Sequence record: MT446416.1
Direction: 5' to 3' (one strand)
DNA from: Escherichia virus TH47
DNA: 64,000 nucleotides
A program made the translations under genes and the position numbers. Numbering within the stretch: position 1 is the stretch's first letter; each line of letters starts with the position of its first letter. This document shows, piece after piece, positions 27,430-62,959 of the stretch. The notes under the pieces were generated by a model that was not told where the DNA came from, did not search any database, and worked only from the letters and a program-made list of their open reading frames with translations.

Positions 27430-27457
27430 ATTATATCACATCATTCGGCGTTGTCAA
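27430..27457 (-). promoter_or_regulatory. sigma70 consensus promoter, distal tandem copy
   Basis: second copy of the same CATTATATCACAT-N8-TTGTCAACA module 94 nt upstream of the first. Confidence 0.65.
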
Positions 27458-47640: not shown

Positions 47641-48063
47641 TTAAATCAATCTGTCACGTAGACGGTCGTAATATTTTGCATGTATATCTAGTATACACTG
47701 AAATGATGGATAGTCAATACTAAATGTATCATCAATGAACATGTACTGATCAAGTGTTTCAGGACCATTATCAACAACTGGCAATGAACCTTCTTTTTTT
47801 GACAGTGTGTTCCACATCAACTCACATGTAGTATCGAAAATTGCGTATGTTAATTCTATCTTACTTTTTCTAAGTGTAATTAATAATTCATCATTCTCTT
47901 CTAACGAGTTTCGTATTTTTATACGTACAGTACCCTGAAATTTATTAGTGGTTAGTACTCTATATTGATTATACGAAATTATACCTCGTATTTCAGTACT
48001 GATTTCTTGTTCAGAAAAGAACCTTACTGTACTGTGGAAATTTGGTATTTTACGAATGTCCAT
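47641..48063 (-). CDS. hypothetical protein, paralogue A
   Basis: shares C-terminal motif YMFIDDTFSIDY with adjacent gene. Confidence 0.5.
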   Translation of the reverse strand: MDIRKIPNFHSTVRFFSEQEISTEIRGIISYNQYRVLTTNKFQGTVRIKIRNSLEENDELLITLRKSKIELTYAIFDTTCELMWNTLSKKEGSLPVVDNGPETLDQYMFIDDTFSIDYPSFQCILDIHAKYYDRLRDRLI

Positions 48064-48457
48064 TCAAATTCCTTTCGTATATATGGTATACGTTCATTAT
48101 ACTATTATATAGATCAAAGTCAAATCCAAATGTGTCATCAATGAACTGATATTGTAGATATTCTTCATATGAAGCATCAATTGGTAATGAGCCATTACGC
48201 ACATCATCTGATTTAAAATCGTCAATGTATCTTAATGTTATGTCTTCATCAACCGTGATATCTATCATCAACGTATCGTCACTGTACCATAGGTTGTGTA
48301 TACGGATGTAAAGTCTCTTAGCACGATTAAACCAAGATACATTGGTATAGCGATGAAGTTTGTCTAAATTGAAGAAAAAACCTGACTCGTTCTTACTTAT
48401 GTTTTTAATATGTTCTGCAATCGGTTCAATTATATGAACAATGTTGAATGTTTTCAT
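48050..48457 (-). CDS. hypothetical protein, paralogue B
   Basis: C-terminal motif YQFIDDTFGFDF; start at ATG coupled to upstream stop (TTATGA). Confidence 0.5.
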   Translation of the reverse strand: MKTFNIVHIIEPIAEHIKNISKNESGFFFNLDKLHRYTNVSWFNRAKRLYIRIHNLWYSDDTLMIDITVDEDITLRYIDDFKSDDVRNGSLPIDASYEEYLQYQFIDDTFGFDFDLYNSIMNVYHIYERNLNGHS

Positions 48458-48639
48458 AAACAAATCTCATAACGGTTTGTGTTTGGATTGTAGCAATAGG
48501 TATCATTAATTTTAACACCAGGTTTAAGTGTGATGGTTGTACCTACTTCAGTACTGGGTTCCGCATCACAGTAAATCATCACACCAACTCCTGCGAGTAA
48601 GGCTATGATACATACAATTACACATATGGTATATTCCAT
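48454..48639 (-). CDS. small single-pass membrane protein
   Basis: 61 aa with hydrophobic helix CVIVCIIALLAGVGVMIY; GAGGAA RBS. Confidence 0.5.
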   Translation of the reverse strand: MEYTICVIVCIIALLAGVGVMIYCDAEPSTEVGTTITLKPGVKINDTYCYNPNTNRYEICL

Positions 48640-48652
48640 TTCAATTCCTCGG

Positions 48653-49045
48653 TTATAAAAAGTAATTGTACATTTTATTGTACAATATAAAAAGGTCTTT
48701 CACATTATCATAAGTAATATTAGATACATCATGAATTAATGATAACTGAAAAAATGATGCTTCGTCTATATCTACTGGGATTATAACATCATCGTCTTCG
48801 TCCATTTTATTGGTGTAGTATTTTATGTGATCAGCATTCATCTCAATAGAGAACGCAAGGTTGGATTTTGTATAATCTTCAATTAATCCGATAAATTTAG
48901 ATTTTTCATTAATAAAAAATCCAATCCCAAAACAACGGTTATCTGAATATGGATAGTACCATCTATTAAAAACTAGGCTTTCAGGTAAATCATCATCATG
49001 TGTTGATACGAGAGATTTTACTACATCTACCCAAACATAATTCAT
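48653..49045 (-). CDS. hypothetical protein
   Basis: 130-aa ORF with GGAG RBS. Confidence 0.5.
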   Translation of the reverse strand: MNYVWVDVVKSLVSTHDDDLPESLVFNRWYYPYSDNRCFGIGFFINEKSKFIGLIEDYTKSNLAFSIEMNADHIKYYTNKMDEDDDVIIPVDIDEASFFQLSLIHDVSNITYDNVKDLFILYNKMYNYFL

Positions 49046-49098
49046 AATTAAAACTCCATAAGAAAAGGGACAGAATTAATCTGTCCCTTTATTATATC

Positions 49099-49431
49099 TT
49101 ACTCTTCGTCTTCAGTCAAGTCTTCTTGAACTGGATGTTCTGGGTGGTTACGGCGATGCAATTTGATGCTTTTGTCTTTACCTAAGACAGTTTCCATTTT
49201 TTCAAATGAATCACCAATTGCTTTGTATAAATCTGCATCATCGGCTGTAACACTCTTACCGCCTGATGTTAAAGTTACGGAATATTGGTTCTTATGCTCT
49301 TTCTTCACATGAACACCAATATGCAGTACTGAAGAATCACTAAACTTCGTTAGTGCATTTGCTTCAGCATGAATTGCGTCATTGATTGCTGGAGTAATAT
49401 CAACATTACCTTGGATAACTAAATCTAGCAT
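49099..49431 (-). CDS. hpf: ribosome hibernation promoting factor / RaiA-like protein
   Basis: aligns along its length with HPF/YfiA (IQGNVDIT.A, VHVKKE, TLTSGG, DLYKAIGD, KLHRRNH); AAGGTAGG RBS. Confidence 0.8.
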   Translation of the reverse strand: MLDLVIQGNVDITPAINDAIHAEANALTKFSDSSVLHIGVHVKKEHKNQYSVTLTSGGKSVTADDADLYKAIGDSFEKMETVLGKDKSIKLHRRNHPEHPVQEDLTEDEE

Positions 49432-49455
49432 AATTTACCTACCTTTTTTTTAGTT

Positions 49456-50382
49456 TTAAAGATTACTAACTAACAATTCTGCACGGTTTCCTACTTGACG
49501 ATACCATAGAGAATTCTTAATTTCTTTTTTGAACTTGTTATCATTTTGATTATCAACGCTTTTCCATAATTTATTGAAAGTATTTAACTTATCAACTCCT
49601 AATGTAAATGCCATCTCAAATAAAATTCGTTGTTGTTCAGCCGTAAGGTTTGTTGCATTTCTTTTCTTCAATAATAAAACTAAATCATTATTAGTTCGTT
49701 CCATGTCAGACAATAAAAGTTTATGTGCTTGTGACTTCGTAATACCATTACGATACTTACTTGCATCTGATTCTTTCTTTCCAAGATAATGTCCGTACCC
49801 AATAGTGAAGTTACCTTTTATATCACGATACGGATAAAATTTAGAATTTCGATATGGAACTCCAACTTTCCCACCAAGTAAACGTCGTTTGTTCTTGGAC
49901 TGAAATTCAATAGAACCTTCAGCTTCTTTGATGTGATTGACAATTTCTGGATCTTTATAATCAAACAGTACAGTCACATCTGGTAACAATACGTGCTTCA
50001 AATCCTCTTTTGTTGGGATAAAGATACCCTGAGAAGTATGAAGAGTTGCATTTAAGTTGATGTTCTTCAACAAAATGACATAATCTTCAATCTGTACATT
50101 TTTAGGTTTAAATTTCTGTGCAATAGAATAATAACTATCACCAGGTTGAACCGTATAATGTTTCTCGCTGCTTGGAACTGCTTTTGGTACTGATACCTTT
50201 GGTAGTTCCTGCTTTTGAATTTGAGTAAACTGTGGTTTTAAATTATGCACCTGACTTTCGTCTAATGATGGTACATGATCACTTTGAGAAAAACCATAAA
50301 ATCCAATAGCAGCGAATAGGGCTGATGAAACTAATACGCCTACGGCAATTTTAGTTTTCAGTGCTTTTTTCGCTTTTTTCAA
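49456..50382 (-). CDS. signal-anchored LysM + T4-lysozyme-like (GH24-type) protein, endolysin candidate
   Basis: TTG start after AAAGGAGG RBS; N-terminal basic stretch then helix IAVGVLVSSALFAAIGFYGF; LysM-like YTVQPGDSYYSIAQKF; C-terminal FTIGYGH...LWYRQVGNRAELL resembles T4 lysozyme. Confidence 0.65.
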   Translation of the reverse strand: MKKAKKALKTKIAVGVLVSSALFAAIGFYGFSQSDHVPSLDESQVHNLKPQFTQIQKQELPKVSVPKAVPSSEKHYTVQPGDSYYSIAQKFKPKNVQIEDYVILLKNINLNATLHTSQGIFIPTKEDLKHVLLPDVTVLFDYKDPEIVNHIKEAEGSIEFQSKNKRRLLGGKVGVPYRNSKFYPYRDIKGNFTIGYGHYLGKKESDASKYRNGITKSQAHKLLLSDMERTNNDLVLLLKKRNATNLTAEQQRILFEMAFTLGVDKLNTFNKLWKSVDNQNDNKFKKEIKNSLWYRQVGNRAELLVSNL

Positions 50383-50498
50383 AACGCCTCCTTTGTTGGT
50401 TGTTAACAATGAGCAATCACAAAGAGGGCAAAGAGGCCATTTGCAAAAGCCTCATTGGACTTTCTACAGTACTCAGTTGTTCTTTGGAACATTTAAGT

Positions 50499-50526
50499 AG
50501 TATAGCATACTTTTTAGTTATATCAA
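50499..50526 (-). promoter_or_regulatory. sigma70-like promoter upstream of the lysozyme gene
   Basis: minus strand TTGATA-N16-TATACT; about 110-nt leader containing hairpin GAGGC..GCCTC. Confidence 0.4.
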
Positions 50527-50549
50527 GACCTATTTACCAAATAACCACA

Positions 50550-50960
50550 TTAATCGTAATATGTTCTACCAATGGTGATGTGATATTTGAAATATTTAGA
50601 TGCTAAACCAAGTTCATCACGAATTTGTGCAATGAAATCATCTTCAAACTCTATGATAAAGAATGACCCAGGTTTCTTATTGTCTTTTACTTCTTCGATG
50701 AAAGGTTCGAACTTAATCTTAACTTTCATACCATCGTACTTTTTCCAGTACTCTGGATTTGGTGGCACTTCACCACGAACGATACTGACATGTGCTCCCC
50801 ATTGGGGGTCTTTAATATCAATATGTAAGTCAGTTCTGATGAAGTACTGGTAGTATCGAACCAACTGTAATGGAAGTTGCAGTACTAACCAGAAGTCCTT
50901 CTTCTTTTTCATAGTGCCACGATCTGGATCATACACCAGAGTTCCTTCCATTTCAATCAT
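50550..50960 (-). CDS. 2H phosphoesterase family protein (LigT/Acb1-like)
   Basis: two H-x-(S/T)-x motifs, GAHVSIV and YHITIG, about 70 aa apart in a 136-aa protein. Confidence 0.6.
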   Translation of the reverse strand: MIEMEGTLVYDPDRGTMKKKKDFWLVLQLPLQLVRYYQYFIRTDLHIDIKDPQWGAHVSIVRGEVPPNPEYWKKYDGMKVKIKFEPFIEEVKDNKKPGSFFIIEFEDDFIAQIRDELGLASKYFKYHITIGRTYYD

Positions 50961-60682: not shown

Positions 60683-62959
60683 TTATTTTTTACTGTACCA
60701 TTGCATTTCACGGATATCTAATAGTACCTTCGTAGCCAACTTTATGTTTGGTCGCTTCGGTAGATGGGTTTTATGATACGCCACATTTCGGATGTAGTCA
60801 ACCTTTTCGTTGAAATAATCCATAACTTCTTGATACAACCACTTCCCGTTACGAATGTCCATCAACATAGCAGCATCTGGTCGGTGAACTTGGATGATGC
60901 CAGTTTCAAGTGCTTCCTCGGCTGTATTCAGCAGCCTGATTGTATGCATAGCATGTTTGCAATTTCCATGTAATGCGGTTTTTCCATTTCTACGAGTAAT
61001 GAGTGTTCCGTTGGGAACAGAAAAACACACAGTTCTGTAATTAGTAACTGGAATTTTTTCAAGATTTTGTTTCATGTTCATTTTTTCGGTTTTGGGTTTC
61101 ATATTGATATGAATTTGATATATATCAACACTACCAAAATTGGTTTCGTTTGTGTATGGTCCCCATTTTGATGTTTCATAACCACATAGCAATGCTAGTT
61201 TTTGAACATCATCAGCTAATAATGAATTGGTAGTATAATATACAAATGTATCATTGTCATTAACTAAATTTCGTTTTGTTCCATCACCTTGTAACAAACC
61301 TTTCAGAAGGAAATCCATTTTACGTTTTGTTAAATCAAATACCCAATTTGGAATTCGTTTATTATATGAACCATGTCCACAATCATTATATAATGCTTCA
61401 GCTACTTCACTTGGGAATGTATATCTTGATTCGTCATTAGCTTGATAATCTTTCTTTTCTATAATGTATTCATTAAACATTAATTGACCAGATTTTTTGT
61501 ATTTTGATAAAGCACAACGCATACCTTGACTAGTTTTTGACTGGGAAATATATAAAGATTTTACTTTACCATCCCTGAAATTTATGCACCCATCTGAAAT
61601 AAACCATCCCATGAGTTGAAGATAAACTTTGATATCCATGTAGTCAATTGGACTTTTTTTATCTTTGTGTTCTTTAGTTATTGGGGATATTGTATTCAAA
61701 ATTTTATATGTTTCTTTTAATTGTGCTGCTTCTACAAATTTCCAATCAGACATATCTTTTTGTTGATTTCGTGCATAATCCTTAACATACATTCGGTGGT
61801 TAGCAGTCACTAAAGTATCTTGGTGATGACCAGTGAAATGGTATAGATTGCCATTATATAAATTATCAAAACGTTCAGTGTATTTCTGATATTCAACTTT
61901 GTGATTTTTGTCAAAAGTAGCTAATAGATCGTTTTCAGTAATATCATCAAATAACTTCCAACCATCTTTAGTTAAGAATTCAGTATCAAAACTATAACAG
62001 TCATAACCGTGGTGTGATTCAAGAATAGCACGTTTGGCATTACGGTTCTGCTTCCATTTGTGATAACTCTTACGGTTCTCACTATTTTCTTTGTATTCCT
62101 TTTCATTGAATTTTACAATGAGTTCAGGACGAACTTTTAATTCTTCCGAAGTACGTTCTTTATTGAAGTAACGTAGTGAACCATCAGCATTCACTGTACT
62201 TTCATTCGGGTTGATAATTACCCCAAAGATGTTTTCACCGTAATGGATTAGTTCATATCCAGAATTGTAATTCAATAAATTGAAATCACGATCTAATACT
62301 TTGTCAGTACTATAATTATGTACTAAACGTACAAAATGATATTGTTTCAATGCTTGTGTTGAAACTAATTGTAATGAAGTATCACGCATGTATTTTTCGA
62401 AATCAATTTTTGTAGCATTGAATGGGTGAAGATTGGATTTATTCAAACGGTCAACCAAATACTGCGGGAATGTATCATACATCCATGAAAGTACTTCGTC
62501 AACTGGATGTTCTTCTAAAATTTCATTTAGTTTACGTTCAGCAATTCGTTCCTTATCGAGCCATCCGTGGTGATTCGACATACGCTTAACCTGATTGTAT
62601 GCATAACCACTGTATGAATGAGCAATCTTTGAACTCAATAATTGCTGATTGAATGAGCGTAGATAGTCATAGATTTCAGTACTTTCTACGATGTGTTCCG
62701 GTTTAACCCATAGTGATTCAAGAATGTTTGGGTTAGCTTCTGTATAAAGACTTAAGTACTGATTGACTTCATAAAATTTAGTATCTTCTTCAGAAGGATC
62801 TGAAACTTCCTTAACATTAAAAAAAGGAGTTAGGATAAATTCTTTGTTTGCAAGGAAGATACCACGATAATCGGTATCACTTTCTGGTGTGCTTGTGCCA
62901 TACGCCTGTGAACCCGCTAAGTGTTTAACAATTGTTTGTTCTAGAAAATTGTTTTTCAT
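60683..62959 (-). CDS. Pol-beta-superfamily nucleotidyltransferase-fold protein interrupted by a probable intein
   Basis: N-terminal HLAGSQAYGTSTPESDTDYRGIF (GS...DxD NTase motif); in-frame 346-aa insert with Hint and LAGLIDADG blocks. Confidence 0.55.
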   Translation of the reverse strand: MKNNFLEQTIVKHLAGSQAYGTSTPESDTDYRGIFLANKEFILTPFFNVKEVSDPSEEDTKFYEVNQYLSLYTEANPNILESLWVKPEHIVESTEIYDYLRSFNQQLLSSKIAHSYSGYAYNQVKRMSNHHGWLDKERIAERKLNEILEEHPVDEVLSWMYDTFPQYLVDRLNKSNLHPFNATKIDFEKYMRDTSLQLVSTQALKQYHFVRLVHNYSTDKVLDRDFNLLNYNSGYELIHYGENIFGVIINPNESTVNADGSLRYFNKERTSEELKVRPELIVKFNEKEYKENSENRKSYHKWKQNRNAKRAILESHHGYDCYSFDTEFLTKDGWKLFDDITENDLLATFDKNHKVEYQKYTERFDNLYNGNLYHFTGHHQDTLVTANHRMYVKDYARNQQKDMSDWKFVEAAQLKETYKILNTISPITKEHKDKKSPIDYMDIKVYLQLMGWFISDGCINFRDGKVKSLYISQSKTSQGMRCALSKYKKSGQLMFNEYIIEKKDYQANDESRYTFPSEVAEALYNDCGHGSYNKRIPNWVFDLTKRKMDFLLKGLLQGDGTKRNLVNDNDTFVYYTTNSLLADDVQKLALLCGYETSKWGPYTNETNFGSVDIYQIHINMKPKTEKMNMKQNLEKIPVTNYRTVCFSVPNGTLITRRNGKTALHGNCKHAMHTIRLLNTAEEALETGIIQVHRPDAAMLMDIRNGKWLYQEVMDYFNEKVDYIRNVAYHKTHLPKRPNIKLATKVLLDIREMQWYSKK
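60962..61999 (-). mobile_element. probable intein with LAGLIDADG homing-endonuclease domain
   Basis: block A CYSFDTEFLTKDGWKLFDDI, block B LVTANHRMYV, two LAGLIDADG-like motifs LMGWFISDG and LLKGLLQGDG, C-terminal NGKTALHGN followed by Cys. Confidence 0.5.

Follow-up and report, generated by a model that had tools for sequence, protein, structure and literature searches.

An old, selected HPF/RaiA-family gene with a RaiA-like tail in Escherichia virus TH47 and related jumbo phages

Why a virus that depends on ribosomes should encode a ribosome silencer is the puzzle raised by a small gene of Escherichia virus TH47 (record MT446416.1), of which a stretch of 64,000 nucleotides, here called the window, was analysed. 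A preliminary description of this DNA had proposed that the gene encodes a phage homologue of the ribosome hibernation factors HPF and RaiA (YfiA, protein Y), and this proposal is upheld by sequence comparison, predicted fold, purifying selection and the annotation of the orthologues. The identification is correct but not new, since RefSeq already names both PBECO4 gp039 and 121Q gene 533 'HPF/RaiA family ribosome-associated protein', and proteins of this kind were published by Mizuno et al. in 2019, who described HPFs of rV5-like phages and of Cronobacter phage GAP32 (PMC6375957). Other depositors have called the gene 'sigma 54 modulation protein / S30EA', 'ribosome-associated inhibitor A' or 'ribosome hibernation promoting factor', and the Sharanji genome paper lists it among translation factors (PMC11895373). 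Mizuno et al. proposed that viral HPFs compete with host factors. In E. coli expressing the rV5 HPF, salt-washed 70S and 100S ribosomes did not contain the protein, and the levels of 100S particles were unchanged (PMC6375957), so that the sole experiment performed so far on a phage HPF was negative. What is added here for the jumbo-phage gene is the architecture of its tail, its vertical descent and synteny, dN/dS estimates, the pattern of conservation and the layout of its promoters.

Judged by sequence and predicted structure, the gene is a real one and its 110-aa product a single-domain member of the HPF/RaiA/protein-Y family. The reading frame occupies the position first assigned to it, although the minus strand had been left unsaid (Table 1), and it lies within a long run of genes on that strand, all its neighbours included. 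Shine-Dalgarno-like, purine-rich motifs are found just 5' of the start codon of the orthologues, in the form of AAGGTAGG, GGAAGG, GAGAGG, AGAGG or AAGGAG. A profile search against the S30AE/HPF family, suggested from the outset as a check, bore out the assignment: Pfam PF02482 (Ribosomal_S30AE) was matched with 43.6 bits (E 5.2e-11), against a curated gathering cut-off of 23.7 bits, over protein residues 8-87 and model positions 5-84 of 88. PHROG 8990 (S30EA) was also matched, as was PHROG 34864 from end to end. On the NCBIfam equivalog models the protein scored under the cut-offs, with 34.4 bits for TIGR00741 (yfiA; cut-off 40.9) and 20.3 bits for NF007780 (short HPF YhbH; cut-off 125), which sets it apart from E. 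coli RaiA and E. coli HPF, respectively. A phmmer search of the PDB at E <= 10 returned 13 sequences, every one of them an HPF, RaiA or protein Y chain (best E 1.1e-8); E. coli RaiA gave no match at this threshold, and the RaiA side was represented only by the H. influenzae homologue (E 0.018). PF02482 was the sole Pfam domain found in the 110-aa protein, the dimerisation domain of long HPFs (PF16321) being absent. The end-to-end alignment with bacterial HPF/YfiA claimed in the preliminary description thus holds for the core, approximately residues 2-94, but not for the last ~16 residues, which lie outside the domain models and align solely with the C-terminal tails of RaiA-type members.

Table 1. 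Features of the HPF locus and of its putative transcription unit (positions are those of the window)
Feature	Position	Strand	Basis or remark
HPF/RaiA-family CDS, 110 aa	49099..49431	minus	ATG 49431-49429, TAA 49101-49099; list of open reading frames and sequence
Shine-Dalgarno-like AAGGTAGG	49438..49445	minus	6 nt 5' of the HPF ATG; read from sequence
Core S30AE domain, residues 1-94	49150..49431	minus	AlphaFold2 models, Foldseek, signature motifs
C-terminal tail, residues 95-110, NHPEHPVQEDLTEDEE	49102..49149	minus	After Arg93-Arg94; predicted disordered
Sigma70-like promoter inside the HPF 3' end	49091..49119	minus	11/12 consensus, 17-nt spacer
Hairpin AAAGGGACAGA-TTAAT-TCTGTCCCTTT, then TCTTAT	49064..49090	minus	Probable intrinsic terminator of the lysozyme-HPF transcript
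LysM and phage-lysozyme protein, membrane-anchored, 308 aa	50382..49456	minus	PF00959, PF01476; probable TTG start at 50382
Conserved 5' leader block TGTAGAAAGTCCAA, then hairpin GAGGC-N11-GCCTC	50433..50468	minus	Leader of the lysozyme-HPF transcript
Sigma70-like promoter TTGATA-N16-TGcTATACT	50499..50526	minus	10/12 consensus, extended -10 TG; 5' of the lysozyme-HPF pair

The fold predicted by AlphaFold2 is that of the family, beta-alpha-beta-beta-beta-alpha, with strands at residues 2-8, 36-46, 49-56 and 59-65 and helices at 14-27 and 68-95. The two runs, with 12 and then 53 aligned sequences, reached a mean pLDDT of 75 and 79, and the core blocks scored 79-91. In a Foldseek comparison with the PDB, the best 36 matches were all HPF, RaiA, protein Y, RafH or plastid pY structures, many of them ribosome-bound, with probabilities of 0.98-1.0 and TM-scores of 0.52-0.72 (rank 36 alone at 0.40). 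In a library of viral structures the top matches were the PBECO4 orthologue and the protein of phage GAP32, the latter at 19% identity. Both signature motifs of the domain are present: the start of helix 1, (I/V)-T-x-A-(I/L), reads ITPAI at residues 12-16, and the start of helix 2, D-(M/L)-Y-x-A-I, reads DLYKAI at residues 67-72. Within these motifs T13, D67, Y69 and I72 are invariant in both phage clades, and the corresponding columns are near-invariant in 124 cellular homologues.

Ribosome binding by HPF and RaiA has been ascribed to surfaces formed by helix alpha2 and the beta-strands, including a basic track on helix 2 (K80, R83, K87 and K91 in E. coli numbering) that contacts 16S rRNA (bioRxiv 10.1101/2025.10.07.680626). 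We took the list of contact residues from that study and verified the E. coli RaiA and HPF reference sequences against the PDB. Several contacts are kept in the phage protein, namely K80, K87 and K89 (phage K78, K85 and K87), Y30 as an aromatic residue (F30), T53 (T53) and R95 (R93). Other positions that are usually basic or conserved have changed (K23->E, K26->A, D75->G, R83->T, Q84->V and K91->I), K23, K26, R83, Q84 and K91 being replaced with respect to E. coli RaiA. On helix 2 the counterparts of R83 and K91 are T81 and I89, and K90 adjoins I89. The exchange of R83 for Thr is not by itself disqualifying, because the HPF of T. thermophilus, which has been seen bound to the ribosome, likewise has Thr at this position. 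The charge of the core was considered as a sign of lost RNA binding and rejected as non-discriminating, given that its net charge of -1 and pI of 6.49 equal those of E. coli HPF. Within the genus, conservation (as the majority fraction) was highest in beta2 (0.89) and alpha2 (0.87) and lowest in alpha1 (0.71), a pattern that fits the reported contact surfaces (bioRxiv 10.1101/2025.10.07.680626).

Beyond the core, the sequence that follows helix 2, HRRNHPEHPVQEDLTEDEE, aligns with the tail of E. coli RaiA, whereas E. coli HPF ends before it and lacks the 16-residue extension of the phage protein. The tail carries a net charge of -7 over residues 95-110, and residues 99-110 are predicted to be disordered (pLDDT < 50). 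A basic-then-acidic tail of this type was present in all 24 phage homologues compared, as against 16 of 56 short cellular homologues. The RaiA tail heads toward the RMF site (bioRxiv 10.1101/2025.10.07.680626), and YfiA (RaiA) is found on 70S particles, HPF together with RMF on 100S particles (PMC5620043). A single domain with a RaiA-style tail and without a dimerisation domain makes silencing of 70S ribosomes likelier than 100S formation. As far as sequence and analogy can tell, a RaiA-like silencing of 70S monomers is thus the more likely activity, and the formation of 100S dimers, which the preliminary description had named for bacterial HPF/YfiA, is disfavoured by the architecture of the protein.

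Comparison with characterised members of the family places the phage protein close to RaiA in layout and apart from all of them in sequence. E. coli RaiA (113 aa) likewise consists of a single S30AE domain without a dimerisation domain, is of near-equal length and shares the arrangement of the tail, with Arg-Arg after helix 2, a short linker and an acidic end, yet it is only 24% identical. E. coli HPF (YhbH, 95 aa), the short HPF that forms 100S particles with RMF, has the same fold (TM-score 0.69-0.79 to 6h4n_x), 30% identity and an equal core charge and pI, but no C-terminal tail. The best sequence match in the PDB was the N-terminal domain of Coxiella burnetii HPFcold (CBU_0020, PDB 9t0z; E 1.1e-8, residues 8-98), which has in common with the phage protein an H-x-x-x-H-P-E stretch after helix 2; the appended domain of HPFcold reaches the anti-Shine-Dalgarno region, whereas the phage protein has only its 16-residue acidic tail. 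Some of the nearest cellular relatives by sequence are the N-terminal domains of clostridial long HPFs (E ~1e-10 to 1e-7), with short marine and Photobacterium RaiA-like proteins ranking level with them in an exhaustive search, but the long HPFs of Firmicutes (PF02482 plus PF16321) possess the dimerisation domain that makes 100S dimers, and the phage protein does not. The HPFs of the rV5-like phages (Vequintavirinae) and of GAP32 are also S30AE proteins, of 105-111 aa, from large enterobacterial myoviruses, and have already been read as possible modulators of ribosome hibernation (PMC6375957). They belong to separate lineages. The GAP32 protein (K4F6Q6) is a structural match with a TM-score of 0.77 and yet only 19% identity, and the rV5-type proteins, which account for ~100 of the 130 phage records matching E. 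coli HPF, are ~44% identical to that host protein and gave no tblastn match to the TH47 protein at E <= 1e-3.

The assignment of this DNA to a phage was borne out by a 5-kb region around the gene that is 84-94% identical to 35 Escherichia and Salmonella jumbo phages of the Asteriusvirus group, such as PBECO4, 121Q and phAPEC6. The protein is 99% identical to its counterparts in phages EC.P1 and WPEC5, and tblastn found the gene in 37 phage records, nearly all of Asteriusvirus type. In a profile search of 1.84 billion representative proteins the Asteriusvirus HPFs formed an isolated clade. The next matches past this cluster were proteins of 103-116 aa (E 2.5e-12 to 1e-6), several of them on contigs of 258-362 kb, which their gene context identifies as phage genes at the same place. 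The order lysozyme, HPF, a few small ORFs, CCA-adding tRNA nucleotidyltransferase, NUDIX and glutaredoxin is kept at HPF identities of 28-36%, and among the named members are Salmonella phages Munch, 7t3 and SE_PL, Klebsiella phage fENko-Kae01 and Erwinia phage Hallingskeid. The conservation of gene order at this level of divergence points to vertical inheritance in a deep jumbo-phage lineage, so that on sequence evidence HPF is an old, vertically inherited core gene of Asteriusvirus and related jumbo phages. With the identities to E. coli HPF and RaiA quoted above, the gene is no recent acquisition from the host. The exhaustive profile search found no close cellular donor: the next non-phage matches, at E 1e-7 to 1e-10, were mixed, comprising short marine forms, one RaiA-like protein of Photobacterium and Clostridia long HPFs. 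A 1605-aa 'kinesin' of Diplonema that was matched in 29 stretches in the same search is a repetitive protein and was treated as spurious.

Pairwise dN/dS values of 0.17-0.29 among Asteriusvirus orthologues, and of 0.14-0.53 against the more distant and saturated Hallingskeid sequence, indicate that the gene is under purifying selection. These values, together with the persistence of an intact and syntenic gene across a lineage diverged to ~30% identity, largely refute the idea that HPF is a decaying passenger without function, a reading that we regard as most improbable. The observation in its favour is that four Salmonella phage records (SD-15_S21, SD-1_S14, SD-2_S15 and SD-6_S16) contain truncated or internally deleted copies. 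The four genomes are shorter, at 310-326 kb, and in the two records inspected the lysozyme gene is broken as well, which suggests poor assembly or deletions during laboratory passage; we therefore rejected the truncations as proof that the gene is dispensable, since they are likely assembly or passage artefacts. What is left of HPF in SD-15_S21 and SD-1_S14 is an internally deleted form (74 aa) or the C-terminal half, the adjoining lysozyme gene is in fragments and the genomes are 20-40 kb shorter; these two cases could reflect poor assembly or a real decay on the Salmonella host.

The gene lies directly behind a lysozyme gene whose length matches the 927-nt gene annotated in PBECO4. This lysozyme gene is found immediately 5' of HPF in all relatives compared except phage Munch, where one gene lies between them. 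The gap between the two genes measures 24 nt and contains no promoter-like site, which makes their co-transcription likely. A sigma70-like promoter is predicted 5' of the pair (Table 1), and a promoter-like site stands at the matching place in A4, PBECO4, 121Q, Turkey5, EJP2 and Hallingskeid. Over the whole window, sigma70-like sites with at most two mismatches number 56 on the minus strand and 11 on the plus strand, as compared with 23 expected from block shuffles. This enrichment of near-consensus sites on the coding strand makes transcription by the host polymerase plausible, and from the sequence the lysozyme-HPF pair is probably transcribed by host sigma70 RNA polymerase from the promoter 5' of lysozyme. 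Elsewhere in the window, three perfect TTGACA-N16-TATAAT sites occur on the minus strand, with the -35 hexamers starting at 27457, 27363 and 3889.

The transcript of the pair would end at a hairpin just behind the HPF stop codon. The terminator scan called this hairpin on the plus strand; the minus-strand reading, taken from the sequence, shows a GC core of GGGACAG/CTGTCCC followed by TTTTCTTAT. All orthologues have a hairpin here, and the annotation of phage Munch places a terminator at the corresponding site, as does that of UE-S1 within the matching region. The hairpin adjoins a second sigma70-like promoter that is embedded in the end of HPF itself, its -35 element TTGACT coinciding with codons Leu105-Thr106 and its -10 element TATAAT following the stop codon; by its sequence it would drive the next gene, which starts with an ATG at 49045. 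The layout GAC-TTG-ACA...TAA-(T/C)A(T/C/G)A(A/C)T recurs in PBECO4, 121Q, Turkey5, EJP2, Hallingskeid and a distant metagenomic relative, so that the lineage as a whole has kept the dual use of this DNA for the HPF C-terminus and for a promoter. The overlapping -35 hexamer, and not the function of the protein, may therefore account for some of the conservation of Asp-Leu-Thr in the tail; in one relative the promoter lies 3' of the stop codon and the tail is still acidic (VIVEDDE). A transcript from the embedded promoter would begin within the 5' arm of the hairpin and would thus escape termination. As an arrangement, the promoter and hairpin form a cassette at 49064-49119 on the minus strand that overlaps the end of the HPF gene and resembles the 'promoter-early stem-loop' cassettes of T4-type phages.

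The leader of the lysozyme-HPF transcript contains a block, TGTAGAAAGTCCAA followed by the hairpin, that hardly varies, if at all, among 10 phages with HPF identities of no more than ~30%. Several explanations of this block were considered and set aside. The motif TGTAGAAAGTCCAA occurs once in exact form in the 64 kb, and its matches with three mismatches number 16 as against 10 expected, at the level of chance, so that a general promoter motif was rejected. The idea that the leader conceals the Shine-Dalgarno site of lysozyme, as happens in early transcripts of T4 gene e, found no support, since the pairing probability of the GGAG was 0.74 in the window compared with a mean of 0.76 when the upstream sequence was shuffled; among the relatives, one of nine was clearly above the shuffles and two more were borderline. 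A search of positions 48900-50700 against Rfam at permissive E-values yielded chance-level matches only, none of them to the lysozyme leader, and the pairs of the leader hairpin showed no covariation, being either invariant or altered on one side only.

Around HPF lie genes for an RlaP nucleotidyltransferase, a thymidine kinase, a 2H phosphoesterase, a CCA-adding enzyme, a NUDIX protein and a macro-domain protein, and relatives additionally carry an RNA ligase in this neighbourhood. Iyer et al. 2021 (PMC7824862) have proposed that such RNA-repair and translation genes counter attacks of the host on the translation system; HPF goes unmentioned in their study. The neighbourhood is circumstantial support for a role in ribosome maintenance. 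Some of these neighbours have features of their own. The 136-aa product of the minus-strand gene at 50550-50960 matched the 2H phosphoesterase 'Swiss Army Knife' family with 23.8 bits, under the cut-off of 27, and this family is recorded at the equivalent position in a distant relative. A 758-aa protein (60683-62959, minus) combines an RlaP domain at residues 14-131 with a LAGLIDADG-like domain at residues ~551-601, and may represent a homing-endonuclease or intein-type insertion or a fusion. On the 3' side of HPF, two adjacent small ORFs (47641-48063 and 48050-48463, minus) encode proteins of 140 and 137 aa that are paralogues (BLASTP E 3e-8) with a common C-terminal motif, GSLP...QY.FIDDTF..D, and neither has a Pfam match. 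Related phages differ in how many small ORFs separate HPF from the CCA-adding enzyme.

What such a protein might do during infection can be approached from the behaviour of its family. The roles suggested in the preliminary description, namely stalling or protection of host ribosomes and the countering of ribosome-targeting defence, are plausible. The likeliest mechanism, to which we give roughly even chances on the strength of sequence, model and analogy, is a RaiA-like capping of vacant host ribosomes. As in other members of the family, the core would enter the head-body channel of vacant host 30S or 70S particles and cover the positions of the mRNA and of the A- and P-site tRNAs, and the tail would follow the path of the mRNA to the anti-Shine-Dalgarno/RMF site, like the RaiA tail and the modules appended to other members. 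Idle host ribosomes would be kept as silent, nuclease-shielded 70S monomers and not as 100S dimers, and translational capacity would thereby be preserved through the long infection of a jumbo phage. Against capping counts the fact that it is not obvious what a phage would gain from silencing ribosomes while its own proteins are being actively made. The proposal is also weakened because the rV5 HPF, from a different lineage and the sole phage HPF assayed, gave a negative result (PMC6375957), and because several basic contacts are replaced and the scores lie under the NCBIfam equivalog cut-offs. We speculate, with low expectation, that the protein could be a dedicated ribosome guard. Produced as soon as infection begins, it would cap the decoding centres of host ribosomes that stand idle, would prevent their locking into 100S particles by RMF and HPF, would keep out the nucleases directed in abortive infection at the decoding centre or at the 16S 3' end, and would act beside the RNA-repair genes for RlaP, 2H phosphoesterase, CCA-adding enzyme and macro domain.

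Three other functions have to be weighed against capping. The competition with host factors suggested by Mizuno et al. (PMC6375957) would take the form of a weak and reversible occupancy of the HPF/RaiA site, or by the tail of the RMF site, that stops RMF and HPF from locking ribosomes as 100S particles under infection or starvation and leaves them quickly available to phage mRNAs. The RaiA-like tail points to such an antagonism of 100S formation, the lost canonical basic contacts fit weaker and reversible binding, and the likely sigma70 promoter suggests that the gene is switched on as infection begins; nevertheless, an occupant of this site blocks tRNA and mRNA and would inhibit phage translation too unless it were efficiently displaced, and the idea overlaps heavily with capping, from which it differs only in the benefit claimed. 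We consider it rather unlikely. Somewhat more doubtful is a repurposed domain, in which the S30AE fold would be kept and ribosome binding lost in favour of some other RNA or protein, such as a transcript of the phage or a factor of the host. The replacements K23E, K26A, R83T, Q84V and K91I, the missed NCBIfam cut-offs, the isolation of the clade (nearest cellular sequences only at E 1e-7 to 1e-10) and the failure to recover the rV5 protein from purified ribosomes (PMC6375957) are all consistent with it, but conservation is focused on the ribosome-facing alpha2 and beta-sheet, K78, K85, K87, F30 and T53 are kept, the core does not differ from E. coli HPF in net charge (-1, pI ~6.5), and the rV5 result came from high-salt-washed ribosomes and a different lineage. 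We deem still less probable that the protein is a host shut-off factor, an early product that would block initiation on free host 30S and 70S particles, phage messages escaping by means of phage translation factors. The binding of HPF and RaiA overlaps the sites of tRNA, IF1, IF3 and EF-G (PMC5620043), the promoter is of sigma70 type and relatives encode an IF3 homologue (PMC11895373), all of which agree with this idea; against it, no known feature would let phage mRNAs bypass an occupied decoding centre.

Overall, this jumbo-phage lineage may be better suited than that of rV5 to test the function of phage HPFs, as its gene is old, syntenic and under selection, its product has a RaiA-like tail and its neighbours include RNA-repair genes. 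If the protein does not bind ribosomes, the hibernation fold would have been put to another use; if it protects ribosomes or blocks a hibernation imposed by the host, ribosome hibernation would be a front in the conflict between phages and their hosts.
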